In this document: positions 4,217-39,554 of the stretch, piece by piece
Numbering within the stretch: the stretch's first letter is position 1
Layout: the number at the start of each line of letters is the position of its first letter
DNA from: Flammeovirgaceae bacterium
Lineage (GTDB): Bacteria > Bacteroidota > Bacteroidia > Cytophagales > MED-G16
Reading direction: 5' to 3'
Length of the DNA: 64,000 nt
Assembly: GCA_038113315.1 (NCBI GenBank)
Contig: JAYNOQ010000001.1
Location: 22,015 to 86,014 of the forward strand
The notes under the pieces: model-generated
Told to the model about the DNA's origin: nothing
Seen by the model: only the letters and a program-made list of their open reading frames with translations
Database searches by the model: none
Program-made: the position numbers and the translations under genes

Positions 4217-6231
4217 AAAAGAAACCAAATAAAAATATTATAAATAATAATAACTTCAATAATCAGATATGGATAGTATTTCTAGTATCTATTTTCATTT
4301 ATCTTTCTTTTGGGTTCTTTTCAACTAAACCAATCACTGTAGACTATAATCGTTTCCAAAAAATGATTAAGAGCCATGATATTTCAAAGATAGTTGTTAT
4401 AAAAAATCAAGAAATTGTAGAAATATCCCTTAAAGAAGAGGCTCTTCTCAATACTACGTATAAAGATGAATTAGAATCATCAAGTTTATTAAGTAATACT
4501 TATGGACCTCATTATAGGTTAGAAGTATCTTCAATTGAATCTTTTGAAAAAAGATATGACGATTTGATAAGTTCGCTTGGTAAAGAAAACACTAATGAGA
4601 TTGAGTATCTAACTGAAAGTCGAACTGATATATATTCTTTTTTACAAACTTGGGGTTTTACAATTTTAATATTAGTTGGTTTTTGGTTTTTATTAAGAAG
4701 GATGTCAACAGGCGGTGGCCCCGGTGGACAAATATTTAATATAAGTAAATCAAAAGCATCACTTTTTGATAAAGAAAGCAAAATAAAATTAACTTTTAAA
4801 GATGTGGCTGGTCTAGAAGAAGCAAAAGAAGAAGTTAAAGAAATTGTAGAATTTTTAAAGAATCCTAAAAAATTTACAAAATTAGGTGGTAAAATTCCAA
4901 AGGGTGCACTTCTAGTAGGATCACCGGGCACAGGTAAGACATTGCTAGCGAAAGCTGTAGCAGGTGAAGCTAACGTACCTTTCTATTCACTTTCTGGATC
5001 AGATTTTGTAGAAATGTTTGTTGGAGTTGGAGCAGCAAGAGTAAGAGATTTATTCAAAAAGGCAAAAGAAAAAGCTCCATGTATAGTATTTATTGATGAA
5101 ATTGATGCAATCGGAAGAAGTAGAGGAAGAGGACAAATGCCTGGATCAAATGATGAAAGAGAAAATACTTTAAATTCATTACTTGTTGAAATGGATGGTT
5201 TTTCTACAGATTCAGGTGTCATTATATTAGCAGCAACTAACAGACCAGATGTTCTTGATTCAGCGTTATTAAGACCTGGTAGATTTGATAGACAGATTTC
5301 TATTGATAAACCTGATCTAAAAGGAAGAGAAGAAATTTTCAAAGTACACATACGACCATTAAAGCTAAATGATGATGTGAATGTAAAAAATCTTGCAGCG
5401 CAAACACCAGGTTTTGCAGGAGCTGAAATAGCTAACGTATGTAATGAATCCGCTCTCATTGCTGCAAGAAAAAACAAAGATTCAATTGAAATGTCTGATT
5501 TTCAAGATGCTATTGATAGAGTAATTGGTGGATTAGAGAAAAAAAATAAAATTATATCTCCAGAAGAAAAGAAAATAGTTGCTTATCATGAAGCTGGTCA
5601 TGCTGTTGCTGGATGGTATTTAGAACATGCTGATCCCCTTGTAAAAGTGAGTATTGTACCTAGAGGTATTGCTGCACTTGGATACGCGCAGTATCTACCA
5701 AAGGAACAGTATTTATATCAAACTGATCAATTACTAGATGAAATGTGTATGGCTCTTGGTGGGAGAGCAGCAGAAGATATAACATTTGGAAAAATTTCCA
5801 CTGGTGCTTTAAGTGATTTAGAAAGAATTACTAAAATGGCATACAGTATAGTTTCTGTTTATGGCATGAACAAAAACATTGGTAATATATCTTTTTATGA
5901 TTCTAAACAATCAGACTACAACTTCACTAAACCATATTCTGATTCAACTGCAGAAAAAATTGATTCAGAAGTTAAAAGAATTGTTGATAGTGCATATGAT
6001 AGAACTAAGAAACTACTTCTTAGCAAAAGAGAACAACTTGAGAAAATTGCTAATAAACTTTTAGAGAAAGAAATTCTATTTCAAAACGACCTTGAAAAAC
6101 TCATTGGAAAAAGACCATTTAAATCAAATCTTGAATTAAGTCAAGAAGAGAATAGTATTCAAGAAACAAAAGAAGAAATCAAAAATAAAAATGAGTTAGA
6201 TGGAAAGAATTCAAATCAAACTAAAAAATAA
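4213..6231 (+). CDS. ftsH: ATP-dependent zinc metalloprotease FtsH
   Basis: 672 aa. Two N-terminal TM segments, AAA Walker A GSPGTGKT, Walker [10 protein letters not shown], zinc motif HEAGHAV. Confidence 0.97.
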
Positions 6232-6949
6232 TAAAAAAGCATATTTTGCAGGTGATTTCCATCTTGGCATTCCTAACGAGAAATCTTCAATGATAAGAGA
6301 GAAGAAGATTATTAAGTGGTTAGATTCAATAGAAAACCATACACAAGAACTTTTTTTAATGGGAGATATTTTTGATTTCTGGTTTGAATATAAATATGTA
6401 GTACCAAAGTATTATTTTAATTTTCTATCGAAAATATCAAATATGATTGATAATGGCATTAATGTACACTTTTTCAAGGGCAATCATGATATGTGGACTC
6501 TTGATTACTTCGAGAATATAGGTTTAAAAGTTTATGATAATCACCAAAGTTTTAAAATAGATAATTCAAATATAATGGTTGGTCATGGTGATGGTTTGGG
6601 TAAAGGAGATAGAGGATATAAAGTCATGAAATCTATATTTAAGAACAGAGCTACACAATTCATGTTTAGAATATTACACCCTGATATAGGTATAAAACTT
6701 GGCACCTATCTATCAAAGTCAAATAAAAATAGAGAAGACAATTCCGAAAAAAATAATAATAGAATTTATAATTTTTGTAAAGATTATAATGATAAGGAAT
6801 CTAATAAAGCATATATTTTTGGTCATTCGCACAAAGTATCTATTAAAAAAATATCGAATTCAAGTACATATTTTAATACTGGAGAATGGTTAAATGAATC
6901 AAGCTATCTCGAATTAGATTCAGATAATTTTAAACTTAAAAAGTTTTAA
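6200..6949 (+). CDS. lpxH: UDP-2,3-diacylglucosamine diphosphatase (LpxH family metallophosphoesterase)
   Basis: 249 aa. Motif series GDFHLG, GDIFDFW, GNHD, GHGD fits the LpxH/calcineurin-like family. I found no alternative in-frame start after the ftsH stop, so the 32-nt overlap with ftsH seems real. Confidence 0.8.
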
Positions 6950-19908: not shown

Positions 19909-20742
19909 TTATTTGGTTAATTTCCATCTTTTATGAGACCACAACCAATCTCCAGGATTCTGAATAATTTGATTCTCCAATTGTTTAGCATATTCTTTAA
20001 TTATTGAATTTTTATCTGAGGATTCAGAAGCGGAAATTTTTATAAATTTTACAGCATATTTTCCTCTAGATTCTCTTACCATTGAAGCATAATAAACTAC
20101 ACTATTAGTTACTCTAGGAATATAATTTATAGAATCAAAAAAAGCAGTATCCTGATTTAGCATTCTTGCCCATTCAATTCTATTTTTTTTATTTGGAGAT
20201 TGATCAGCAACTACCCCTAAAATTTTTATATCATTAATATCACTTTTAAGCTTTGAAATAGCATCTTTTGACTCTAAAAGAATAGATCCAAATCTTGATC
20301 TTGATTTATACATAATTTCATCAAACGTTGAACTGGAAAGTTTTTTATAAATAAAATGAAGATTTGATATTAAATTAATCTCAGCAGATATAGCAAGCCA
20401 TTCCCAGTTACATTGGTGGCTTGTTAAAACTACTACCCTCTCATTATTTGATATATGGTTATTGATAATATCTATATTTCTAAAGGATACGTGTTTTAAT
20501 AAATCCGCTTTTTTGATTGAATAAGATTTGATTGTCTCAAAGAAAATATCACAAAAATTTTTATAAAACCTTTTCTTAATTTTCTTAAACTGTTCCTCTG
20601 AAAGATCGGGGAATGAATTTTTGATATTTGTTTCAACTACTTTTTTTCTATAAAATCTTGATATAAATACATAAAAAAAATCTGAAAAAACATACAAAAC
20701 TTTAATAGGCAATTTTGATACTAGATGATAAAAGAATTTCAT
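19909..20742 (-). CDS. Lipid A biosynthesis (LpxL/HtrB-family) acyltransferase
   Basis: 277 aa. N-terminal hydrophobic anchor and SHQCNWEW, which matches the HxxxxE/D acyltransferase catalytic motif of the lauroyl/myristoyl acyltransferase family. Confidence 0.72.
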   Translation of the reverse strand: MKFFYHLVSKLPIKVLYVFSDFFYVFISRFYRKKVVETNIKNSFPDLSEEQFKKIKKRFYKNFCDIFFETIKSYSIKKADLLKHVSFRNIDIINNHISNNERVVVLTSHQCNWEWLAISAEINLISNLHFIYKKLSSSTFDEIMYKSRSRFGSILLESKDAISKLKSDINDIKILGVVADQSPNKKNRIEWARMLNQDTAFFDSINYIPRVTNSVVYYASMVRESRGKYAVKFIKISASESSDKNSIIKEYAKQLENQIIQNPGDWLWSHKRWKLTK

Positions 20743-20746
20743 ATAA

Positions 20747-22306
20747 CTAAATAATTTTATTTAGCTTATTACTTTTTGAATCACTTTCGATTTGAATAAT
20801 CTCTTTAATTGATTTATCCCTTCTTATTAATGTTTTGACATATTTCCAAGTTGCCTGAACTTTATCTCTATTGAAGTCTAAAATTAGGTAACCATGATCC
20901 CTTGTATTTGTATATTTAAGATGCGGGTTGATAGACTCATCTGTTATGTAATTTTCATGGTCAATTAAATTTTGTAGAGGAACATTAGAAAACCTTTCAT
21001 CAGAATTTCCTGAATTTATACTTGGGGTACCAAATTCCAATGCATACGGTTTTATAGGGAAGTCAGATTCTAATGGAATATGATTTACCTCAAAAGCCCA
21101 AGACTGATGTGTGTCACCCGTAATAAAAACAACATCATTTATATCATTACTAACTATATGATCAGCAATTCTTTGTCTCTCAACAGGATAGCCATCCCAC
21201 GAATCTAAATTTATATTAAAGTCTGGTCTTCCATAATTTAAGTATGAAAATATAACTTGATTACCTATTATTTTCCACTGGGTTGAATTATCGGATAAAT
21301 TATTTAAAAACCAATTAAGTTGAACCTCGCCAAGCATAGTCCTGTCAGACTCAAATAAACTTGAATCTTGTAAACTGCTCGCTTGTTTTGTTCTACCCTC
21401 CAGCCTTTCTTCTAGAATTATGAGATCTGCTAAACTACCAAAAGTAAACTTCCTGTATGGCATTTGATTTTCTCTTATTGGCTGCCACTCGTAATAAGCT
21501 TGAAGTGCAAATGAAATTCTTTCATTAAAATTTCCTTCTTTTTCCTCTTGATGATTTTCAGCTCCATCTTTATATGTATTATTAGCAGTTTCGTGATCAT
21601 CCCATATTAAAATAAAAGGATGACTACTATGAGCACTTATTAAATCAGGGTCTAATTTGTATTGAGAGTGCCTTGTCCTGTAGTCTGTCAAAGAAACAAT
21701 TTCTTTATCAGGTAAATGTAATCTTTTGAAAATCCCATTGCTATAATCACGAGACTTATACTCATAAATATAATCTCCTAAATGTATTACTGCATCTAAA
21801 TCCTCATCAGCAAGTGATCCATAAGCATTAAAAAAGCCTCTTTGATAGTCACTACAGCTAATTGCTGCTATCTTTAGTGAACTTGTAGAATCACTAATTG
21901 TTTTTGTTCTGCCAACCATTGATTCTTTTCCTAAAGCTTCAAACTTATAAAAATATGTTTTGCCAGGACTTAATTTGTCCACATCAACTTTTACAGTATA
22001 ATCTCTTTCATTATTTGTAATAAACACACCTTCATTTATAATTTCATTAAAATCCTTTGATTCAGATATTTTCCATTTTACAGAAATTTCACTTAACGTT
22101 TTTTCAGGTGTAACTCTAGTCCAGATTATAACTTTATTTTCTAAAGGATCACCTGATGCTACTCCATGATAGAAAGGGGCCATAGAATCAACTTTAAGAC
22201 CATCAACGTCTTCAATAAATGATAATTCTTTATTTGTACAATTAATTAAAATAAAAATTGCACAAAAAAGATAAACTAAAACTGAAAGAGACTTTTTCAT
22301 TTTCAT
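20747..22306 (-). CDS. phoD: PhoD-family alkaline phosphatase/phosphodiesterase, predicted lipoprotein
   Basis: 519 aa. PhoD-like metallophosphatase pattern (FYHGVASGDP, HLGDYIYE, WDDHE, GDTHQSW). The N-terminus has a lipobox (LINC) and no twin-arginine motif. Confidence 0.85.
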   Translation of the reverse strand: MKMKKSLSVLVYLFCAIFILINCTNKELSFIEDVDGLKVDSMAPFYHGVASGDPLENKVIIWTRVTPEKTLSEISVKWKISESKDFNEIINEGVFITNNERDYTVKVDVDKLSPGKTYFYKFEALGKESMVGRTKTISDSTSSLKIAAISCSDYQRGFFNAYGSLADEDLDAVIHLGDYIYEYKSRDYSNGIFKRLHLPDKEIVSLTDYRTRHSQYKLDPDLISAHSSHPFILIWDDHETANNTYKDGAENHQEEKEGNFNERISFALQAYYEWQPIRENQMPYRKFTFGSLADLIILEERLEGRTKQASSLQDSSLFESDRTMLGEVQLNWFLNNLSDNSTQWKIIGNQVIFSYLNYGRPDFNINLDSWDGYPVERQRIADHIVSNDINDVVFITGDTHQSWAFEVNHIPLESDFPIKPYALEFGTPSINSGNSDERFSNVPLQNLIDHENYITDESINPHLKYTNTRDHGYLILDFNRDKVQATWKYVKTLIRRDKSIKEIIQIESDSKSNKLNKII

Positions 22307-22356
22307 AATATGTAAAATTAGATTATTAATGTATTACACAATGAATATAAGTGAAT

Positions 22357-22364
22357 TATATTTG
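22357..22364 (+). promoter_or_regulatory. Candidate -7 promoter box for the 22373-25728 gene string
   Basis: TATATTTG matches TAnnTTTG exactly, 8 nt upstream of the ATG at 22373. No clean TTG at the expected -33 position. Confidence 0.3.
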
Positions 22365-22372
22365 AGTCCAAA

Positions 22373-23386
22373 ATGAAAATATCAGCATCAATATACTCAA
22401 ACAACGACAGAAGTTTAGAAATCCTTATTCAAGATCTTGATAAATACAATATTGATATGTTTCATGTTGACTTTAATGACAAAAAAATAGAGTTCAATAA
22501 GATCGAGGAAGATATTAAAGAAATTAGAAAGATTAGCAATAAGCCTATTGACTTACATATTATTTCAGATAACCCAAATAAATATGAGAACTTCATTATT
22601 GAAAATGAGATCGAATTTGTAACATACCAATTAGAAAATATTAAGGATGAATTAGAGTTTCCTAACTCAGTTAAGACTCAATTTGGTATTGCAATAACAT
22701 CAGATACAGAGGTAAGTAAATTTGAAAATTACAAAAACAATTGTGATTTTATTCTTCTTATGACTACTACTCCAGGAGAAAGTGGAGGTAAATTCAATAA
22801 AATTAATTTTAAAAAAATAAGAGATTTCAAGAATACATATCCATCAAAAAAGGTTCATATAGATGGAGGGGTAAATGATGAAATTGCATTTATACTTAGA
22901 ATTCATGGCGTTAAATCTGTTGTGTCTGGATCATATCTTGTTAACGGTGATATTGCAAAGTCTTTATTGGAACTAAAATCATCAGTATCATCATCTCAAA
23001 TTAAAGTAAGTGAGTTTATGCTTAATAGAAATGAGTCACCAATTGTAAATGAAAATAGCAAAATAGATGAAATTTTATCTACTATCGAAAAATATGATCT
23101 AGGTTTTACTTGTGTAGAAAATAGAAAAAAAGAATTAATTGGAATTATTAGTATGGCAGATATACGAAAAAGTTTAATTAATAATATAGAAGCTTTTAGC
23201 ACTTTTAAAGCTGAGGACATTATAAATAAGAATCCAATAATTATAAAGGAGGGTGATAGTATTAATAATATGTTGAAGACTATTCAAAACCATAATTTTC
23301 TTATATCTTTTATTCCCGTTACTAATGAAGTAATGAAGTTAGTAGGGCTAGTTACATTTTTTAATCTAATAAAAAGCGAATCATGA
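22373..23386 (+). CDS. Ribulose-phosphate 3-epimerase-like TIM-barrel domain fused to a C-terminal CBS pair
   Basis: 337 aa. The N-terminal ~205 aa follow the RPE pattern (KISASIYS, FHVDFND, IDLHIIS, LLMTTTPGESGGKF, VHIDGGVN, VVSGSYL). The C-terminal ~125 aa show two CBS-like repeats (SEFMLNRNESPIV...GIISMADIRKSL and AEDIINKNPIII...GLVTFFNLIKS). Confidence 0.65.
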   Translation: MKISASIYSNNDRSLEILIQDLDKYNIDMFHVDFNDKKIEFNKIEEDIKEIRKISNKPIDLHIISDNPNKYENFIIENEIEFVTYQLENIKDELEFPNSVKTQFGIAITSDTEVSKFENYKNNCDFILLMTTTPGESGGKFNKINFKKIRDFKNTYPSKKVHIDGGVNDEIAFILRIHGVKSVVSGSYLVNGDIAKSLLELKSSVSSSQIKVSEFMLNRNESPIVNENSKIDEILSTIEKYDLGFTCVENRKKELIGIISMADIRKSLINNIEAFSTFKAEDIINKNPIIIKEGDSINNMLKTIQNHNFLISFIPVTNEVMKLVGLVTFFNLIKSES

Positions 23387-24381
23387 TTATTCATTTACAA
23401 GAAAACATATCTGTCGATAATGCAAGAAAAATTTCATCAGAGCTAGAAGGAAAATTAATATTCAATAACGAAAATAAATTGATAATAACATCCTCTAAAA
23501 CAAAATTTATTGATAAAAAATATGAAGACTTTATCTCAGAAAAATTTGTTTTAGAATCAGATATTCAATTATCAAGTAAAGATTATATTAAAAAAACTAG
23601 AAAGGTAAAAATAAATAATATTGAAGTCGGAGGGGAAACAAATAACACACTAATGATAACTGGTCCATGTTCTATTGAAAGTGAAGATCAAATTAGAGAA
23701 TCAGCTAATTTATTAAAGAAATTAAATCTTACTACACTTAGAGCTGGTTGTTTTAAACCTAGAACATCACCATATTCTTTCCAAGGACTTGGTGTAGAAG
23801 GATTGAAAATGTTATCGGATATAAGAGATGAGTTCGGATTTAATATAATTTCAGAGGTTAAAGACGCATCTCACGTTGATGATGTCATAAAATACACTGA
23901 TATTATTCAAATCGGAGCCAAAGCAATGTATGATCATGGCATCCTCAGAGAAACAGGCCAACAAAATAAGCCTGTACTCCTTAAAAGAGGTTTTGGATCT
24001 AATCTACAGGAGTTTGTCCAGGCTGCTGAGTTTATTTTATCAGAAGGAAATCCAAATGTAATTTTATGCGAGAGAGGAATTAGAACTTTTGAAACAAAGA
24101 CTAGGTTTACTTTAGATTTATGTGGAGTTTCTTTTTTAAAGGAGTATACCAATTTGCCCATCATATTAGATACCAGTCATGCTATGGGATATAGTTATGG
24201 AGTTCCTGATCTGACTAGAGCTTGTGTAGCAATGGGAATAGATGGTTTATTAATAGAGAGTCATCCTAACCCAAAAGTTGCAAAGTCTGATGCATCTCAG
24301 CAACTAAACTTTAAAGAATTTGAAGAAATGTTTTCAAGCTTAGTTCCAATATGTAAAGCTGTAAATAGAAATTTGATATGA
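23383..24381 (+). CDS. 3-deoxy-7-phosphoheptulonate (DAHP) synthase, class I-beta with N-terminal ferredoxin-like regulatory domain (Thermotoga type)
   Basis: 332 aa. GPCSIES, FKPRTSPYSFQGLG (the DAHPS-type KPRT motif, not the KDO8PS KANRS motif), IIQIGA, LLKRG, ILCERGIRTFE, LDTSHAMG. About 90 extra N-terminal residues. Confidence 0.82.
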   Translation: MIIHLQENISVDNARKISSELEGKLIFNNENKLIITSSKTKFIDKKYEDFISEKFVLESDIQLSSKDYIKKTRKVKINNIEVGGETNNTLMITGPCSIESEDQIRESANLLKKLNLTTLRAGCFKPRTSPYSFQGLGVEGLKMLSDIRDEFGFNIISEVKDASHVDDVIKYTDIIQIGAKAMYDHGILRETGQQNKPVLLKRGFGSNLQEFVQAAEFILSEGNPNVILCERGIRTFETKTRFTLDLCGVSFLKEYTNLPIILDTSHAMGYSYGVPDLTRACVAMGIDGLLIESHPNPKVAKSDASQQLNFKEFEEMFSSLVPICKAVNRNLI

Positions 24382-24854
24382 GAATACCTAAAATAAAAAT
24401 GCTTATTCTAGATGTAGATGGTACCATGACAGATAATGGCATATATATTGATGAAAATGGCATTGAATCTAAAAGATATAACGCAAAAGACGGGGTAGGT
24501 ATTTATGAGCTTATTAAAAAAGGTGTGAAAATTGGAATTATAAGTCATTCAGAGAGAGGTGATGGAATTAAATCAAGAGCATCTTATCTAGGTATTAAAA
24601 GCTGTTATGTAGGAAATGCACCAAAAGATAAAATCTTAATTGATTGGATAAATGAAGATAAAATTACATTAGAAGAAGTTGCGTTTATTGGAGATGATAT
24701 AAATGATATGAGTATAATTGATATTGTTGGTTTTAGTGCTTGCCCTAGCGATGCGTCTCAACCTGTTAAAGAAAAAGTATCATTAGTACTAAATACTAAG
24801 GGAGGATATGGTTGTGTAAGGGAATTTAGTGATTTATATTTGAGCCAAATTTAA
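24378..24854 (+). CDS. KdsC/YrbI-family HAD phosphatase (3-deoxy-ulosonate phosphate phosphatase family)
   Basis: 158 aa. HAD motif [15 protein letters not shown], motif IV GDDINDM, C-terminal GGYGCVRE. The size and pattern fit the YrbI subfamily. Confidence 0.8.
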
Positions 24855-24858
24855 AAGA

Positions 24859-25728
24859 ATGAGTGTTCTAGTTAATAAAAACTCCAAAGTAATAGTTCAA
24901 GGATTTACAGGATCTGAAGGAACTTTCCATGCTTCTCAAATGCTAGAATATGGCACAAATGTAGTAGGTGGAGTTACTCCTGGAAAAGGTGGTACATCAC
25001 ACTTAGAAAGACCTGTATTTAATACTGTCTATGATGCAAAAAAAAATACTGGAGCCAATGTTTCGATAATTTTTGTTCCTCCAGCTTTTGCTGCAGATGC
25101 AATTTTAGAATCTATAGACTCTGATATTGAAGTTGTTGTTGCAATAACCGAGGGTATTCCAGTTAAGGATATGATTAAAGTTAAATCCGCATTAAAAAAC
25201 AAAAAAAGTACTTTAATCGGCCCAAATTGTCCAGGAATTATAACTCCTGAAGAAGCTAAAGTTGGCATTATGCCTGGTTTTGTTTTCAAAAAAGGAAATG
25301 TTGGTATAGTCTCAAAATCTGGAACCTTGACATATGAAGCTGCAGACCAAGTTGTTAAAGCAGGGTTCGGAATATCTACTGCAATTGGTATAGGTGGCGA
25401 TCCAATTGTTGGTACCTCTACTTTGGATGCTATAAAATTATTTATGAGTGATACTGAAACTTCAGGTATAGTTATGATTGGAGAAATAGGTGGTAACTAT
25501 GAAGCTGAAGCTTCAAAATGGATTAAAGATAATGGTAACCAAAAACCAGTAGTTGGTTTTATTGCAGGTCAAACTGCACCAAAAGGAAAAAGAATGGGTC
25601 ATGCAGGTGCAATAATTGGAGGTAAAGACGATACTGCTGAAGCTAAAATGAAAATAATGAGGGAAAGCGGACTAACTGTTGCTGAATCCCCTGCAAATAT
25701 TGGATCAAAATTAAAAGAAGTTCTATAA
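24859..25728 (+). CDS. sucD: Succinate--CoA ligase subunit alpha
   Basis: 289 aa. [22 protein letters not shown] and SKSGTLTYE, with the phosphohistidine loop MGHAGAII. Confidence 0.95.
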
Positions 25729-27111
25729 GTGAATTACTTCATTATATGCAGCAGCTGTTGCTTCCATTATTGCTTCTGACATTGTAGGATGTGGATGTAC
25801 TGACTTTATAATTTCATGAGCAGTTGTCTCTAATTTTCTTGCAGCAACTACTTCAGCAATCATTTCAGTAACATTATAACCAACCATATGACAACCTAAC
25901 CATTCTCCATATTTTTTATCAAATATAACTTTAACAAATCCATCTGAATGTCCAGCAGCATTTGCTTTTCCTGAAGCAGAAAAAGGAAACTTACCAACAT
26001 TTATTTCATAACCTAGATCTTTGGCTTGCTTTTCAGTAAATCCAACTGAAGCAACTTCGGGACTACAATAAGTACATGATGGAATATTATCATAATTTAA
26101 AACCCCTGGATTTTTACCAGCCATCTTTTCAACACATATAATTCCTTCAGCAGAAGCAACATGTGCCAGAGCTGGTCCTTTTATCACATCTCCAATCGCA
26201 TATATACCATCAATATTAGTTTGATAATAATCGTCAACATTTATCTTACCCTTTTCAGTAATTATACCAAGCTCTTCAAGTCCAATATTTTGAATATTTG
26301 TTTCAACTCCAACCGCAGATAATACAACATCGCAATCAATTACAGATTCTTTTTCGTTACTGGAGTAAGTTACTTTACAACCCTTACTATTAGAAGAAAC
26401 GGCTTTAACTTCTGTATTTGTTAAAATCTCAATTCCTGATTTTTTGAATGACTTTTCTAGCTGTTTGGAAACATCTATATCTTCTAATGGAAGAATATTT
26501 GGCAAGTATTCAACTAATGTAACCTTAGTTCCTATACTATTATAGAAATAAGCAAATTCTGAACCAATAGCACCTGAACCAATTACAACCATTGATTTAG
26601 GTTGTTTCTTTAAAGTCATTGCTTTTCTATACTCAATAATTTTCTCACCATCTAGCTTTATATTTGGTAATTCTCGTGATCTACCCCCGGTAGCAATAAT
26701 TATATTATCAGCTTTATAATTTTTTTTATTTTTTTTATCATCTTCAACCTCAACTTCATTTTTGGAAATAATTTTACCAAATCCATTGATGATATCAATC
26801 TTATTTTTTTTCATTAAAAAATTAACACCTTTACTCATACCGTCAGCAACACCTCTACTTCTATTTATAATAGAATCAAAATCAATACTTGAACTTTTAA
26901 TATTAATACCATAGTCGCTTGAATGACTAACATAATCAAAAACTTGAGCACTTTTTAGAAGGGCTTTTGTAGGAATACATCCCCAGTTTAAACATATTCC
27001 ACCTAAAGATTCTTTTTCGACAACAGCAACTTTCATTCCTAATTGAGAAGCTCTAATAGCTGCTACATATCCTCCAGGACCAGATCCAATAACTATTAAA
27101 TTGTATGACAT
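25723..27111 (-). CDS. lpdA: Dihydrolipoyl dehydrogenase
   Basis: 462 aa. [16 protein letters not shown] motif, redox-active [14 protein letters not shown]-terminal HPHPTMSE dimerisation motif. Confidence 0.93.
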
Positions 27112-27127
27112 AATTATATTTTTTTGA

Positions 27128-27135
27128 CAAATTTA
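27128..27135 (-). promoter_or_regulatory. Candidate -7 promoter box for lpdA
   Basis: The minus strand reads TAAATTTG (exact TAnnTTTG), 16 nt upstream of the lpdA ATG at 27111. No clean -33 TTG seen. Confidence 0.3.
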
Positions 27136-27227
27136 TATTCTAAATGTTTATAATAAAACTATTGATAATTTTATCTTAAAATTTGTAAGAAAGTTTATAT
27201 AATTTTAAGCTCATTCAATTAATTAAT

Positions 27228-27974
27228 ATGAAAAATCTAAAAAATAAAACTGCAATAATTACTGGAGGTTCAAAGGGTATAGGAAAAGGAATTGTTGAAA
27301 AATTCGCTAAAGATGGATGTAATGTTGCATTCACTTATCTGAGTAGTGAATCATCTGCAAATGAAGTTGAAGAAAAAGCAAAATCTTATGGTGTAAAAGT
27401 AATTAAATATAAATCCGATGCTTCAAGCTTTGAACAAAGTAGTGAACTGATTGATAATGTAATTAAAGATTTCGGATCATATGATATACTAATAAATAAC
27501 GCAGGAATTACAAGAGATAACCTTTTATTAAGAATGGATGAAGAGTCATGGAAAAAAGTAATTGATATTAATTTAAACTCTTGTTTTAATCTAACAAAAT
27601 GTGCAATTAGAGAATTTATGAAAAAAAAAGAAGGTGTAATTATCAATATTAGCTCTATAGTTGGCGTAAAAGGAAATGCAGGTCAATCAAATTATTCAGC
27701 TTCAAAAGCAGGAATAAATGGATTTACAAAATCAATAGCATTAGAATTAGGATCTAGAAATATTAGATGTAATGCAATTGCTCCCGGATTTATAGAAACT
27801 GACATGACAAGTCAAGGAGATGGTAAGTTATTAGAAAGCTGGATAGAGTCTATTCCTCTAAAAAGAGCTGGTAGTATAGATGACGTCGCAAACTTATGTT
27901 CATATTTAGCCTCTGATGAAGCATCTTACATAACAGGTCAAATAATAAAGGTAGATGGGGGGCTAGTTACTTAG
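27228..27974 (+). CDS. fabG: 3-oxoacyl-[acyl-carrier-protein] reductase
   Basis: 248 aa SDR. TGGSKGIG, NNAG, and the catalytic YSASKAG motif. Length and termini are typical of FabG. Confidence 0.88.
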   Translation: MKNLKNKTAIITGGSKGIGKGIVEKFAKDGCNVAFTYLSSESSANEVEEKAKSYGVKVIKYKSDASSFEQSSELIDNVIKDFGSYDILINNAGITRDNLLLRMDEESWKKVIDINLNSCFNLTKCAIREFMKKKEGVIINISSIVGVKGNAGQSNYSASKAGINGFTKSIALELGSRNIRCNAIAPGFIETDMTSQGDGKLLESWIESIPLKRAGSIDDVANLCSYLASDEASYITGQIIKVDGGLVT

Positions 27975-30495
27975 ATTCTTGCTTATTTTTCTTTGTATCT
28001 AGTTTAGTTATTTTAATTCCCTTAGACTTTTTGTCGTAGTCAGCCAAAACTAAGTCACCTTGTTTCACATTTCCAGATAAAATTTCTTCGGCAAGAACGT
28101 CTTCAATATGTTTTTGGATAGCTCTCTCCAACGGACGTGCACCATATTTTGGGTTATAGCCTTTATCAATAATGAAATCCTTTGCTTCATTAGTTAGATC
28201 AATAGAATAACCTATTTCATCTGCTTTTGAGTACAACTTTTTTAAGTTTATGTCTATAATTTGATATAAATTTTCTTTAGTTAAAGAATTAAATATTATT
28301 ATATCATCAAGTCTATTTATAAATTCAGGATTAAAAGTTCTTTGTAATGCTTTATCAATTGTTGAATTTAAATTTTCATTAATATTTTCAACTCTTGACT
28401 TAGTATCAAAACCGATACCTGCACCAAAATCTTGAACATCTCTTGCCCCAACATTTGAGGTCATTATCATAATAGTATTTCTAAAATCAACTCTATGACC
28501 TAAGCCATCAGTCAAGAATCCCTCATCAAGAATTTGTAGTAGGAGGTTAAATACGTCAGGATGAGCTTTTTCAATTTCATCAAGTAAAATAACACTGTAA
28601 GGCTTTCTTCTTACTTTCTCACTTAATTGACCTCCTTCTTCGTAACCAACATATCCAGGAGGAGCACCTACAAGTCTAGAAATAGAAAATTTCTCCATGT
28701 ATTCTGACATATCAACCCTAATTAGTGCATCATCTTTATCAAAAAGTTCATTAGCCAAAACTTTAGCTAATTCAGTTTTACCTACACCAGTTGGCCCTAA
28801 AAATATAAATGATCCAATAGGTTTCTTCGGATCCTTTAACCCAACCCTAGTTCTTTTAATAGCTCTGACTAATTTATCTATTGCATCGTCTTGACCTACA
28901 ACTTTCTTTGATAAAGTTTTAGACATAGACATCAATCTTGAACTTTCATTTTGTTCAATTCTTTCAAGTGGTATCCCAGTCACCATTGAAATAACTTCTG
29001 CAATGTTTTTTTCTTCAACTTTATGTCTCTTTTTCTTTGATTCCTCTATCCACTTCTTTTTTTGAACATCTAACTCTGCAAGTAATTTTTTTTCGGTATC
29101 TCTTAATTGAGCCGCTTCCTCGTATTTTTGATTTTGAACAACTTGATTTTTCTGACTTTTAATCTCTTCAATTTTATTTTCAATATCAATGATTACCTCT
29201 GGAACATCAAGATTATGCATATGAACTCTTGATCCTGCCTCATCCATTAGATCTATAGCCTTATCAGGTAAAAACCTATCGCTAATATATCTATCTGAAA
29301 GTTTAACACAAGCCTCAATAGCTTCTTTAGTATAAATAACATTATGATGACTTTCATACTTATCTTTTATGTTATCTAAAATATTTTCTGTTTCCTCAGG
29401 TGTTGTAGGATCAATAATAACGTTTTGAAATCTCCTTGCTAAAGCTCCGTCTTTTTCAACATATTGTCTATACTCATCTAAAGTTGTTGCACCTATACAC
29501 TGTAATTCACCCCTAGCAAGGGCCGGTTTGAACATATTAGATGCATCTAAGGAACCAGAAGCTCCTCCAGCTCCAACAATGGTATGAAGTTCATCAATAA
29601 ATAAAATGATGTTATCAGACTTTTCAATTTCAGTCATTACCGCTTTCATTCTTTCTTCAAACTGCCCACGATATTTTGTGCCAGCAACTAAAGAAGCTAA
29701 ATCTAGGGTTACTACCCTCTTGTTATGAAGTATTCTAGATACTTTCTTTTGTGTAATTCTTAATGCTAATGCTTCAGCAATAGCTGTTTTTCCTACTCCA
29801 GGCTCACCAATTAAAATTGGATTATTTTTCTTTCTTCTAGTAAGTATTTGAGCAACTCTTTCAATCTCTTTTTCTCTACCAATGACTGAATCTAATTTAT
29901 TTTGCTCAGCAAGTTTAGTTAAGTCTTTACCAAAATTATCAAGTATTGGAGTCTTAGACTTTTCCTTAGTTTTAGGAGTTTTAGAAGAAGAGCTGCCTTT
30001 TAAACTAGACATATCATCTTCCTCCATTGGCTCAGAAGATGTACTCGCTTGTGGATTACTTGTTTGATACTCAAGTAATTCTTTGACTACATCATATGTT
30101 ACATCAAACTTATCAAGAATTTGAGTTGCAATATTATCTTCATCTCTTAGAATAGATAATAACAAATGTTCAGTCCCAATTAATTTACTTTTAAATATTT
30201 TAGCCTCTAGATAAGTTATTTTAAGGACTTTCTCAGTTTGTCTAGTAAGAGGAATATTAGTTACATTCTTTAAATTTGAAGATGTAGTATTTTTAGTGTT
30301 ATGTTCAACAGATGCTCTTAGGTCTTCTAAACTAATTCCTAATTTTTTAAGTAATCCAATCGCTACACCTTCTCCTTCTCTTATTACCCCTAACAATAAG
30401 TGTTCAGTACCAATGTAGTCATGTCCTAGCCTGAGGGCTTCTTCTCTACTTAATGATATTACTTCTTTAACTCTATTTGAAAACTTTGCTTCCAT
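27967..30495 (-). CDS. clpC: ATP-dependent Clp protease ATP-binding subunit, ClpC type
   Basis: 842 aa. Duplicated Clp_N repeats, two AAA modules ([18 protein letters not shown]), a UVR-like linker ([16 protein letters not shown]). No long ClpB middle domain. Confidence 0.9.
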
Positions 30496-37375: not shown

Positions 37376-38574
37376 AAAACACTGAATCGTTAAGACTACA
37401 AGGAGTTGAAGAATCGTCAACACTAGCAATGGCTGCTCTAGCAAGGGAATATAAAGTAAAAGGCGTGGATGTAATTAGTTTAAGCTTAGGTGAGCCTGAT
37501 TTTAAAACACCAACTAATATATGTGAAGGCGCTAAAGAAGCAATAGATTCTGGTAAATATTTCTCATATCCACCTGTTCCCGGTTATTTAGATTTTCGTG
37601 AAGCAATTTCTGAAAAATTCAAAAATGAAAATGGCTTAAATTATAGCCCTAGTGAAATAATTGTTTCTAATGGAGTAAAACACTCAATTACCAATGTCAT
37701 GTTTTCAATCTTAAATCCTGGAGATGAGGTAATTGTATTTGCACCTTTTTGGGTAAGCTATTCTGCTATAATATCACTAGCTGATGGAATACCTAAATAT
37801 ATTAATACTACAATTAAAAATGACTTTAAACCAACTAATGATCAATTAGAGGAAGCTATTTCAACAAAAACTAAAGCGATAATTTTTAGTTCCCCTTGTA
37901 ACCCAACTGGCACAGTATTTACTAAGGAAGAATTAGAAGGTTACAGAAATATTTTAGTTAATCATCCAGATATTTATGTTATTTCAGATGAGATTTATGA
38001 GCATATAAATTTTACGGATGAACATGCAAGTTTTGGCTCCCTCGAAGGGATGAATGATAGGACAATAACAATGAACGGTTTTTCTAAGGGATTCGCAATG
38101 ACAGGATGGAGATTAGGATATATAGGTGCTCCGGCTAAAATTGCTAAATCAATCAATAAGATGCAAGGTCAAACTACATCTGCTAATTGTTCAATAGCAC
38201 AAAGAGCAGGGCTTACTGCGCTCAGAGGAGGAAATGAAAGTGCGCTAAATATGAAAAAAGAATATCTGAAAAGAAGAAATATTGTTTTTGATTTATTATC
38301 AAAAATTGATAAAATCAAACTAAATAAGCCTCAGGGTGCTTTCTATTTTTTCCCTGAAATTTCTAATTACCTTGGAAATAAAACTAAAGATGGGAAAAAA
38401 ATTAATAGTGCAAATGATCTTGCATTATATCTCCTTGAAGATGCTAAAGTTTCTTTAGTTCCTGGTGAGGACTTTGGAGCACCTAATTGTATAAGAATTT
38501 CCTATGCAGCAAGTGAAAAAGAACTTATAGAGGCTACTCAAAGAATTGAGAAATCTTTAAGCAAGTTATCCTAA
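37372..38574 (+). CDS. Pyridoxal-phosphate-dependent aminotransferase (aspartate aminotransferase class I)
   Basis: 400 aa. LSLGEPDF, SNGVKHS, NPTGTV, and the PLP-lysine region NGFSKGFAMTGWRLGY. Confidence 0.88.
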   Translation: MKNTESLRLQGVEESSTLAMAALAREYKVKGVDVISLSLGEPDFKTPTNICEGAKEAIDSGKYFSYPPVPGYLDFREAISEKFKNENGLNYSPSEIIVSNGVKHSITNVMFSILNPGDEVIVFAPFWVSYSAIISLADGIPKYINTTIKNDFKPTNDQLEEAISTKTKAIIFSSPCNPTGTVFTKEELEGYRNILVNHPDIYVISDEIYEHINFTDEHASFGSLEGMNDRTITMNGFSKGFAMTGWRLGYIGAPAKIAKSINKMQGQTTSANCSIAQRAGLTALRGGNESALNMKKEYLKRRNIVFDLLSKIDKIKLNKPQGAFYFFPEISNYLGNKTKDGKKINSANDLALYLLEDAKVSLVPGEDFGAPNCIRISYAASEKELIEATQRIEKSLSKLS

Positions 38575-39554
38575 TGAAAATCAAAAATATCTTTGATAAA
38601 ATTAAAGGAAAAGAAATTATTATTATTGGAGATTCAATGGTTGATTCCTATGTAATAGGAGAAATAAACAGAAATTCTCCAGAAGCTCCAGTTCCTATTG
38701 TTGATATTCAAAAAGAAGAAGCAAAACTTGGGGGAGCTGCAAATGTTGCACTAAATATTCAAAGCCTTGGAATGAAACCAATTTTATGCTCAGTAATTGG
38801 TGAAGATGAAGACGGAAAAAATTTTTTAGAAATATGTAATGATTATAATTTAGATACCTCAGGAATTTTAGTTGATAGAGAACGAAAGACAACAAATAAA
38901 AAGAGAGTTATAGTAGATAAAAAACATATACTGAGAATTGATAATGAACATACCAACTTATTAAATGATGAAATCTTTGATAGATTTTTAAAAAATATTG
39001 AGGGATTAATTTCGGATGATCAAATTATTATTTTTCAAGACTATGACAAAGGAGTGATTGAAAAAAAATTGATTAATAAAGTAAAAAAAATGGGCAATAA
39101 GCTATTTATTGCTGTAGATCCAAAAAGAAGAAATTTTTTTGATTATGAGGATATTGATTTATTTAAGCCTAATCTCAATGAAATCTTAGACGCTTATAAG
39201 ACTGAAGATAAATCGATTAGTAACATAAATCATGTTTCAGATAAATTAAAAAGAGAAAAAAACATTAAAAATTTAATGGTTACTCTTTCAGATAAAGGTC
39301 TAATTATCAATAACAATAAGGGTTTTATTCACAATAAGATTGAAAAGAAAAAAATTATTGACGTATCTGGAGCTGGTGATACTGTAATTTCCCTTGCAAC
39401 AATTTTATTTTATCTTGATTTACCAGAAAAGTTTATTGCAGAGATATGTAATCTTGCTGGAGGAATTACGTGTATGAAATCAGGAGTAAATGCAATTAAC
39501 CTCAAAGAGCTATTAGAAAATGCAGAAAGAAACAATTTAGATTTATATCTTTGA
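38574..39554 (+). CDS. PfkB-family sugar kinase resembling the heptose-7-phosphate kinase domain of HldE/RfaE (kinase domain only)
   Basis: 326 aa. IIIIGDSMVDSYVIGEINRNSPEAPVPIVDIQKEEAKLGGAANVALNIQSLG closely follows the RfaE domain-I N-terminus. C-terminal DVSGAGDT PfkB motif. No cytidylyltransferase-like second domain. Confidence 0.7.
   Translation: MKIKNIFDKIKGKEIIIIGDSMVDSYVIGEINRNSPEAPVPIVDIQKEEAKLGGAANVALNIQSLGMKPILCSVIGEDEDGKNFLEICNDYNLDTSGILVDRERKTTNKKRVIVDKKHILRIDNEHTNLLNDEIFDRFLKNIEGLISDDQIIIFQDYDKGVIEKKLINKVKKMGNKLFIAVDPKRRNFFDYEDIDLFKPNLNEILDAYKTEDKSISNINHVSDKLKREKNIKNLMVTLSDKGLIINNNKGFIHNKIEKKKIIDVSGAGDTVISLATILFYLDLPEKFIAEICNLAGGITCMKSGVNAINLKELLENAERNNLDLYL

Follow-up and report, generated by a model that had tools for sequence, protein, structure and literature searches.

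The window analysed here is a 64,000-nucleotide stretch of contig JAYNOQ010000001.1 (positions 22,015 to 86,014, forward strand) from the Flammeovirgaceae bacterium assembly GCA_038113315.1. [quoted passage not shown] The trio, the gene that follows it and a possible promoter element are arranged as follows (window coordinates):

22373..23386, + strand: g1 (337 aa), an RPE-family TIM barrel (approx. residues 1-205) fused to a C-terminal CBS pair (approx. residues 210-337)
23383..24381, + strand: g2 (332 aa), a ferredoxin-like N-terminal domain (residues 1 to approx. 60) and a DAH7PS type I-beta barrel (residues approx. 85-332)
24378..24854, + strand: g3 (158 aa), a YrbI/KdsC-family C0 HAD phosphatase
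24859..25728, + strand: sucD, succinate-CoA ligase alpha (NF004230 match, 441 bits)
22357..22364, + strand: candidate Bacteroidota-type -7 promoter element TATATTTG, read by eye 8 nt before the g1 start codon and given low weight

Both junctions within the trio are 4-nt ATGA stop/start overlaps (g1-g2 at 23383-23386 and g2-g3 at 24378-24381), and sucD starts 4 nt past the g3 stop on the same strand. An earlier note on this DNA had described this layout, which is seen in the sequence, and its domain assignments (RPE-like plus CBS, DAHP synthase, KdsC family) agree with the profile matches of all three genes. The terminator scan detected none between g3 and sucD or anywhere in 22000-26200; sucD is probably co-transcribed with the trio while lying outside the module. 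The element TATATTTG fits the Bacteroidota-type -7 consensus TAnnTTTG. Sigma-70 promoter sites were not in excess in a scan of 22000-26200, and a search of 20000-28000 with Rfam turned up no RNA element. The host is a low-GC (approx. 30% GC), Marinoscillum-like marine bacterium of the Cytophagales, and its window shares 98% protein identity with a contig from AH-321-C20, a single-cell genome of an uncultured Marinoscillum sp.; the Flavobacteriia setting assumed in the earlier note does not hold.

The trio is a conserved unit. In a survey of one genome per GTDB species, g1 relatives were found in at least 572 species genomes, and the neighbourhoods of the 80 best loci were compared; these loci come from metagenome-assembled genomes (MAGs) labelled Cytophagales, Flavobacteriales (Crocinitomicaceae, Vicingaceae), Chitinophagales and Bacteroidales. 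The only widely shared genes are g1 (78 loci), g2 (75) and g3 (68). In 75 loci g2 comes immediately after g1, and 67 of these 75 share the identical 4-nt overlap; g3 comes next in 68 of the 80, mostly at a spacing of no more than 15 nt. By comparison, sucD (29/80), fabG (27/80) and lpd (25/80) accompany the trio within Cytophagales only. Neither the window nor the 80 loci contain kdsA, rpe, a second phosphatase or paralogues of g1, g2 or g3. Cultured carriers include Crocinitomix algicola, Reichenbachiella sp. and Roseihalotalea indica. In distant clusters with a rearranged gene order, g1-like and g2-like genes are adjacent again, at identities of 31-34% (g1) and 47-51% (g2).

These data bear on the view that unrelated genes became neighbours by chance in a compact genome in which short overlaps are frequent, a view to which the sucD gene only 4 nt further on, and the association of sucD, lpd and fabG with the trio in Cytophagales, might lend some credit. 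However, chance does not account for g1-g2 adjacency in 75 of 78 loci from MAGs whose labels span several orders, 67 of which have an identical 4-nt overlap, nor for the recurrence of the pair in distant rearranged clusters. Because the order and overlap of the trio are conserved, chance adjacency is excluded in practice as hardly tenable. For the same reason, i.e., conservation across Bacteroidota orders, the caveat in the earlier note that overlaps are common in this genome does not explain the trio; the neighbourhood comparison, which that note had named beforehand as a refuting test, showed the gene order to be kept in relatives.

Some loci deviate from this layout. Among those of the 80 loci whose sequence extends far enough downstream, L070 (5921-6970) is the only one that lacks g2 after its g1 homologue. 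In L013 (12050-13518), L037 and L043, which are of the Reichenbachiella type, g1-g2 precede a gene for a 301-aa nucleotidyltransferase-like protein (weak GlmU/GalU-type matches) rather than a phosphatase, and a peroxiredoxin-like gene, read by eye, follows. In L060 (12000-12713), the KdsC-like gene starts at the g2 stop and encodes a 237-aa HTH-phosphatase protein, the N-terminal extension of which (approx. 75 aa) is helix-turn-helix-like (weak RstR-family match). The same applies to other loci in which a "gap" of approx. 220 nt separates g2 from the phosphatase domain (e.g., L041, L054, L056, L063 and L068).

The N-terminal part of g1 matches the Pfam family Ribul_P_3_epim (PF00834, residues 2-189, 90.7 bits), and two CBS domains are also recognised, but the protein scores below every NCBIfam rpe cut-off (TIGR01163, 79.5 vs. 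212.6 bits; NF004076, 100 vs. 165). Its AlphaFold (AF2) model has a predicted local distance difference test (pLDDT) value of 91, and the top Foldseek matches are RPEs, with template modelling (TM) scores of 0.75-0.82; the CBS pair resembles, among others, those of KdsD. Residues H31, D33, D36, H62 and D164 correspond in the alignment to the metal ligands and the catalytic Asp pair of RPE; they are invariant in 60 homologues and are retained in most of the distant relatives. Metal-assisted two-base epimerisation is therefore expected, and g1 is proposed to be a sugar-phosphate epimerase of this kind with a regulatory module attached. Compared with Rpe and AlsE (allulose-6-phosphate 3-epimerase), g1 has the same fold and the same metal-binding His/Asp/His/Asp set and catalytic Asp pair, but it is only approx. 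20-23% identical, remains far from the equivalog cut-offs, has Asn35 and Ile64 at two residues of the Met "cushion", and differs in its fused CBS pair and its coupling to g2. Models of KpsF/KdsD match the CBS part alone (residues 210-334, 27-31 bits), and no SIS catalytic domain was found in g1, whereas the true KdsD genes at two loci of g2 relatives (L148 and L163) score 152-320 bits. Two further roles for g1 were considered and ruled out: that it is the normal Rpe of the host, given the scores far under the rpe cut-offs and the coupling to g2, and that it acts on the g2 product, in which C3 is deoxy and nothing beside the carbonyl can be epimerised.

According to profile scores, g2 lies on the DAH7PS side of its superfamily. 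It exceeds the DAH7PS cut-offs (NF006421, 353.4 vs. 335 bits; TIGR01361, 313 vs. 267.75), falls below those of Kdo-8-phosphate synthase (KDO8PS; NF003543, 133 vs. 242; TIGR01362, 128 vs. 314), matches Pfam DAHP_synth_1 with 227 bits and contains KPRTSPYSFQGLG. As had been read from the sequence beforehand, it carries the DAH7PS signature KPRTS rather than the KANRS motif; it also lacks the extended beta7-alpha7 loop, both of which separate it from KdsA. The core scores 268 bits with A. pernix DAH7PS and 257 bits with P. furiosus DAH7PS vs. 60-92 bits with KDO8PS. The N-terminus is modelled as a beta-alpha-beta-beta-alpha-beta ferredoxin-like fold, and the full-length model aligns with T. maritima DAH7PS (PDB 1RZM; TM 0.81 over 345 columns), which bears out the Thermotoga-type architecture suggested previously. 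Nonetheless, the Pfam model of the DAH7PS ferredoxin-like domain (PF18152) does not match the g2 N-terminus, whereas it does match those of the ordinary relatives P0248 and P0253. The metal ligands C96, H266, E292 and D303 and the K125-P-R-T-S129 motif are invariant in 58 homologues, and Lys201, Arg231 and KPRTSPYSFQG are also kept.

The distinguishing feature of g2 is an active-site loop. The protein was scored against 1.84 billion cluster representatives, and active-site motifs were tabulated for the approx. 140 closest DAH7PS representatives. Nearly all of these have Q-[IV]-G-[AST]-R-N-x-Q-N-[FY] and D-P-S-H-x-x-G, whereas G-[ATS]-K-x-M-[YF]-D together with S-H-A-[MIL]-G-x-x-[YK]-[GY]-V occurs only in g2, its top relatives P0241, P0242, P0245, P0247 and P0249, and the degenerate P0252. 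The g2 loop reads QIGAKAMYDHG, with K180, M182, Y183 and D184 invariant in the family. In characterised DAH7PSs, the Arg of the GARNxQN loop binds the phosphate of phosphoenolpyruvate (PEP). Judging from an alignment with the E. coli KdsA sequence, the changed loop covers this position, as well as that of the KDO8PS Arg (A. aeolicus R106) which enters the neighbouring active site; structures of the A. aeolicus R106G mutant are among the structural matches of the g2 model. The g2 clade is monophyletic in 100/100 neighbour-joining bootstraps. On sequence grounds, g2 is a member of a distinct subclade, and the idea that it is a plain DAH7PS, also raised in the earlier note, does not agree with the altered loop. 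The protein is proposed to be an ulosonate-phosphate synthase that condenses PEP with an aldose phosphate. Relative to T. maritima-type DAH7PS (type I-beta; PDB 1RZM, 3PG9), the two-domain architecture, metal ligands, KPRTS and most PEP ligands are shared, but the clade has G[ATS]K-x-M-[YF]-D instead of GARNMQN and SHAMG-x-x-YGV instead of SH-x-x-G-R-R, and it is partnered by genes for an RPE-like protein and a YrbI phosphatase rather than by aro genes. No aro gene or chorismate mutase (CM) domain was found in approx. 120 clade loci; two control loci with ordinary DAH7PS genes also have no aro neighbours, one of them having a CM_2 fusion.

Membership of g3 in the YrbI/KdsC HAD subfamily, as assigned previously, is confirmed by a score above the family cut-off (TIGR01670, 115 vs. 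106.95 bits), but g3 is well below the equivalog cut-offs for KdsC (NF007019, 116 vs. 208) and for the phosphatase of 3-deoxy-D-glycero-D-galacto-nonulosonic acid (KDN) 9-phosphate (NF058599, 124 vs. 180). Its best match in the Protein Data Bank (PDB) is BT1713 (91 bits), and the matches there place it at approximately equal distances from BT1713, H. influenzae/E. coli KdsC and the B. thetaiotaomicron KDO8P phosphatase. Residues D12, D14, D106, D107 and Arg67 are invariant in 68 orthologues, the DxD nucleophile motif is kept, and a one-residue insertion, S-[HSN]-[SG], is present in motif 2. Arg67 aligns with the carboxylate-binding Arg (Arg86 of E. coli KdsC and Arg64 of BT1713). Signature residues have reportedly been established for both types of phosphatase. 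The specificity Arg of KdsC lies in T-G-R (E. coli Arg78), and the aligned position in g3 orthologues is variable (E/F/K). A Glu56/Lys67 pair is said to mark KDN-9-phosphate phosphatases of the BT1713 type; the Glu is not conserved in g3 orthologues, and the position of Lys67 is hydrophobic (M/Y/L). Thus characterised, g3 looks like a third specificity class of 2-keto-3-deoxy acid phosphate phosphatases, and it is proposed to be an ulosonate-phosphate phosphatase.

The gene contexts in which members of the g2 clade occur elsewhere were drawn from look-ups of clade representatives and from scanning metagenomes for a DNA pattern specific to the clade, designed to leave out the window-type Ala179 (107 stretches, 37 true g2-like genes). 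Apart from the window arrangement (type A), the following types were distinguished:

Type B1 (L083, L085, L164, L166, L182, L175): cytidylyltransferase / RraA-like / g1-like / g2-like
Type B2 (L088-L090, L113, L180, L149, L185, L172/L173/L087): g1-like / g2-like / 396-aa fusion of CTP_transf_3 and YrbI phosphatase / RraA-like
GT29 variant (L129:5222-5980, L196:734-1492): Glyco_transf_29 (sialyltransferase-family) gene directly upstream of g1-g2
Type C (L148, 2551-5654; L178, L190, L197; also L204): canonical kdsD / kdsA / kdsB / g2-like, with end-to-start overlaps
Type C as found in L163: kdsA / kdsD / g2
Type D (L115/L207): kdsB (300 bits) / g1 / g2
Type E (L162/L209:10001-13560): g2 / yrbI without g1, in window-type synteny (threonine aldolase upstream, sucD downstream)
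Type F (L097, L123, L141, L160): g2 beside a purine nucleoside phosphorylase gene, with no g1 nearby

Type B clusters are embedded among polysaccharide genes: B1 adjoins genes for UDP-glucose dehydrogenase and methyl-, acetyl- and sulfotransferases, and B2 adjoins a family 2 glycosyltransferase (GT2), an ABC transporter and GDP-mannose 4,6-dehydratase. Their cytidylyltransferases form a group of their own, with scores well short of the cut-offs for KdsB (32 bits vs. at least 193) and PseF (49 vs. 206), and most g1-like proteins of the B and other clusters retain the RPE catalytic residues. The two GT29 loci have a bona fide kdsB nearby as well as a HAD_2 phosphatase gene. In type C, KdsA (KANRS) scores 346 bits and KdsB 283 bits, and the type D contig also carries PorP/SprF and Peptidase_C25 genes typical of Bacteroidota. 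In the type E lineage, g1 is lost or has moved. In one protein (P0242, L081:72-1637), the g2-clade synthase is fused through a Pro/Ala-rich linker to a g3-type YrbI phosphatase, the phosphatase half being 41% identical to g3; the gene lies on a metagenome contig of 67% GC with 2.9x coverage, represented by two assemblies with an identical starting base.

In neighbour-joining analysis of the g2 barrel (234 columns, 100 bootstrap replicates), B1 and B2 sit on deep branches, with A, C, D and E nested above them. B1 takes the basal position in 81/100 replicates, and a monophyletic group of all type B sequences is recovered in 0/100. Since the clusters for CMP-activated ulosonates branch basally, the window type is nested among them; the simplest history suggested by the tree is that the clade arose in a CMP-ulosonate cluster and that the Bacteroidota trio is a reduced derivative embedded among housekeeping genes.

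Several additional features of these relatives may be mentioned. The KdsD of type C loci (L148 and equivalents) is a single 200-aa SIS domain without CBS domains, whereas that of L163 is of the usual SIS plus CBS form (319 aa). The RraA-like gene, which belongs to the class II pyruvate aldolase/oxaloacetate decarboxylase family, is found throughout the fuller clusters (L083:4358-5008 and L088:10128-10751, with equivalents in L113, L164, L166, L180, L182 and L185). Its NCBIfam matches include an archaeal "hexulose-6-phosphate synthase/RraA" fusion, and 3-deoxy-2-ulosonic acids belong to the 4-hydroxy-2-oxo acids, on which enzymes of the RraA-like family act. On a Firmicute-like contig (L093:8001-11254, with BofA, Gin, RecR and DnaX neighbours), the gene for a degenerate g2-clade protein lacking the metal Cys and having KRRTS lies upstream of two genes that encode a NeuB-family synthase and a phosphatase of the YrbI type.

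Taken together, these data are consistent with a role of the trio as the core of an uncharacterised pathway to a free 3-deoxy-2-ulosonic acid resembling Kdo, probably a seven-carbon one, for cell-envelope glycans; a probability of roughly 0.5 is assigned to this reading. It draws on the folds and catalytic residues of the three proteins, the phylum-wide conservation of the operon and the separate g2 clade, as well as on the repeated linkage of that clade to every class of Kdo-type gene, i.e., synthase partner, phosphatase, cytidylyltransferase, transferase and kdsA/B/D. The g2-g3 fusion P0242, the residue signature of g3 and the LPS-type genes of the host (see below) also count in its favour. 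The rationale of the earlier note, in which an isomerase or epimerase, a synthase and a phosphatase act in sequence, stands insofar as an ulosonic-acid route is backed by the CMP-transferases, YrbI fusions, GT29-like and polysaccharide genes of the relatives; a route to Kdo itself is less likely, and the trio would not be a simple replacement of KdsA. An argument for a glycan sugar is the coupling of g2 and g3. Dehydroquinate synthase needs the phosphate of DAH7P, and the shikimate pathway would therefore have no use for an enzyme that removes it.

In the proposed scheme, the RPE-family barrel of g1 would adjust the configuration of a sugar phosphate, and its CBS pair might sense a nucleotide-type effector. 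A specific possibility is that erythrose 4-phosphate is epimerised at C2 to D-threose 4-phosphate, a pair that would be isosteric with ribulose 5-phosphate (Ru5P)/xylulose 5-phosphate (Xu5P) minus C1. The g2 enzyme, presumably under allosteric control through its ferredoxin-like domain, would then condense PEP with this aldose phosphate. The product would probably be a 3-deoxy-heptulosonate 7-phosphate, i.e., a seven-carbon compound, because the KPRTS motif of g2 places the phosphate at tetrose distance. Removal of the phosphate by g3 would release the free ulosonic acid, which is the inferred product of the window trio. By analogy with the relatives, a CTP_transf_3 enzyme encoded outside the window could make the CMP-sugar, to be installed by a glycosyltransferase. 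In this scheme g1 is accessory, not an obligatory partner, because some lineages keep g2-g3 without it. More tentatively, and with the odds somewhat against it, many Bacteroidota, as well as other bacteria with the fuller clusters, may make a CMP-activated seven-carbon homologue of Kdo (3-deoxy-D-lyxo- or D-arabino-heptulosonate) from erythrose 4-phosphate for lipopolysaccharide (LPS) or capsule, using an RPE-family tetrose-4-phosphate 2-epimerase, a neofunctionalised DAH7PS subclade and a dedicated YrbI phosphatase, with GT29-type transferases installing the sugar in some lineages. To our knowledge, tetrose-4-phosphate 2-epimerisation is not known for the RPE family.

Several points weigh against an ulosonic-acid pathway. 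A dedicated cytidylyltransferase, an RraA-like gene and a glycosyltransferase are all absent from the window locus and the 80 loci, and the proposed function is carried over from relatives with 45-55% identity. The g2 core is very close to proven DAH7PSs and passes the NCBI DAH7PS cut-off, and the enzyme may simply make DAH7P; if it were the sole DAH7PS of its carriers, it would have to serve the shikimate pathway. The lineages with g2-g3 but without g1 (L162/L209) show that g1 is dispensable, which weakens an epimerase-first scheme. The tree of the g2 clade is a neighbour-joining tree only. The lack of aro neighbours carries little weight and was dropped as an argument because the ordinary DAH7PS control loci lack them as well. 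Likewise, the P0242 fusion was rejected as strong evidence and is given little weight because it comes from a single lineage at low coverage.

Two other readings have to be considered. The trio might be an ordinary housekeeping operon, in which g2 is the shikimate DAH7PS (Thermotoga type, with feedback regulation by way of the ferredoxin-like domain), g3 is the KdsC of LPS synthesis and g1 is an epimerase paralogue that balances Ru5P and Xu5P and hence the supply of erythrose 4-phosphate or arabinose 5-phosphate; the genes would then be co-transcribed on account of their shared use of PEP and pentose-phosphate intermediates. Such a view is in keeping with the NCBIfam DAH7PS score of g2, its KPRTS motif and a set of metal and PEP ligands that is complete save for one Arg-to-Lys change, with the closeness to proven DAH7PSs, including the full-length match to the T. 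maritima enzyme, and with the annotation of homologues as DAH7PS in the sources. The location among sucD, lpd, fabG and lepA, with no CMP-transferase or glycosyltransferase nearby, and the persistence of g2-g3 without g1 in L162 point in the same direction, and in type C g2 could be an unrelated passenger beside a complete canonical kds set. However, a housekeeping role leaves unexplained why the relatives reside in polysaccharide clusters that also carry fusions of cytidylyltransferase and phosphatase as well as RraA-like and GT29-like genes, why these clusters branch basally, why GARNMQN was lost throughout the clade and why g2 and g3 are fused in one case. Moreover, g1 is far under the rpe cut-offs, and the Pfam ferredoxin-like model, which finds the N-terminus of ordinary relatives, misses that of g2. 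The usual DAH7PS of Bacteroidota is reportedly a fusion with chorismate mutase, which g2 is not. A housekeeping operon is regarded as rather unlikely.

The other reading, put forward in the earlier note, is a variant route to Kdo, in which g1 would make arabinose 5-phosphate (e.g., by 2-epimerisation of ribose 5-phosphate) in place of KdsD, g2 would stand in for KdsA and g3 would be KdsC. The gene order mirrors KdsD/KdsA/KdsC, g1 shares with KdsD the layout of a catalytic domain followed by a CBS pair, g1-g2 share an operon with a bona fide kdsB in L115 and have one nearby in L129, and the trio is retained in a housekeeping context in a streamlined, LPS-making genome. Some archaeal DAH7PSs are said to accept arabinose 5-phosphate. 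Nonetheless, g2 has KPRTS instead of KANRS, no extended beta7-alpha7 loop and 128-133 bits where KDO8PS cut-offs are 242-314, the cytidylyltransferases of the basal clusters are remote from KdsB, and g3 is without the residue aligned to the KDO8P-phosphatase Arg. Canonical kdsD, kdsA and kdsB share an operon with a g2-clade gene in five loci, where the clade is no substitute for KdsA. Because of this co-occurrence and the KPRTS motif, the Kdo route is disfavoured and seems quite improbable.

The preferred reading, i.e., an ulosonic-acid module, can be placed alongside known pathways. As in CMP-Kdo synthesis (KdsD, KdsA, KdsC, KdsB), a sugar-phosphate rearrangement would be followed by PEP condensation, dephosphorylation and CMP activation; g3 belongs to the YrbI family of KdsC, g2 to the DAHP_synth_1 superfamily of KdsA, the CBS pair of g1 is like that of KdsD, and some lineages have g2-clade members co-operonic with kdsA, kdsB and kdsD. 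In contrast to that pathway, g1 combines an RPE-family barrel and the Asp pair of epimerases where KdsD is a SIS-domain isomerase, g2 resembles DAH7PS (KPRTS, loop 7 not extended) and carries a regulatory domain of ferredoxin-like fold, g3 has neither the KdsC equivalog score nor its signature, and the product is probably not Kdo. The pairing of a PEP-dependent synthase with a YrbI-family phosphatase is also found in the KDN pathway (B. thetaiotaomicron KDN-9-phosphate synthase BT1714 and phosphatase BT1713), and cytidylyltransferase-YrbI fusions are common to sialic acid pathways and relatives of the module. However, g2 is of the DAHP_synth_1 rather than the NeuB type, and g3, under the KDN-9-phosphate phosphatase cut-off, does not have the residue aligned to BT1713 Lys67. 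Within the logic shared by the Kdo, KDN and N-acetylneuraminic acid (Neu5Ac) 9-phosphate routes, the trio would use an RPE-CBS epimerase for the SIS isomerase, a DAH7PS-derived synthase for KdsA/NeuB and a YrbI phosphatase with a signature of its own.

A full-text literature search on the trio, RPE-CBS fusions and related ulosonic acid topics returned no description of such a module within the library covered. Homologues are annotated as "3-deoxy-7-phosphoheptulonate synthase" (g2) and "CBS domain-containing protein" (g1), and the RPE-CBS family is labelled in the sources only as CBS-domain, hypothetical or pentose-5-phosphate 3-epimerase proteins; the annotation of g2 homologues as DAH7PS is likely to be a systematic error. 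Sugar acids of the Kdo type anchor or decorate the outer membrane and are targets of antibiotics, phages and immune recognition. If the trio does make a new ulosonic acid, the envelope sugar repertoire of a major environmental and gut-associated phylum would be extended, and the RPE-CBS family would acquire a function. Hundreds of "3-deoxy-7-phosphoheptulonate synthase" genes would then be wrongly placed in aromatic amino acid synthesis, which would affect metabolic reconstructions and auxotrophy predictions for marine Bacteroidota. Such a module would also represent a natural case of the recruitment of a DAH7PS to glycan synthesis, parallel to the old transition from DAH7PS to KdsA.

Other genes in the window relate to the envelope of the host. 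An LpxH-like gene for UDP-2,3-diacylglucosamine diphosphatase (6200..6949, + strand; 90 bits vs. a cut-off of 134) and a gene resembling HldE domain I, a heptose-7-phosphate kinase (38574..39554, + strand; 277 vs. 345), both sub-threshold, indicate that the LPS of the host may have a heptose-containing core. Divergent from the trio and upstream of it lie genes for an LpxL-like lipid A late acyltransferase (19909..20742, - strand; 121 bits, cut-off 248) and a PhoD-like phosphatase (20747..22306, - strand; 332 bits, far under the equivalog cut-off). Because of the LpxL-like, LpxH-like and HldE-like genes, the host is taken to make LPS. The LpxL-like and PhoD-like genes hold the same position in Marinoscillum-like loci (17/80 and 12/80, respectively).

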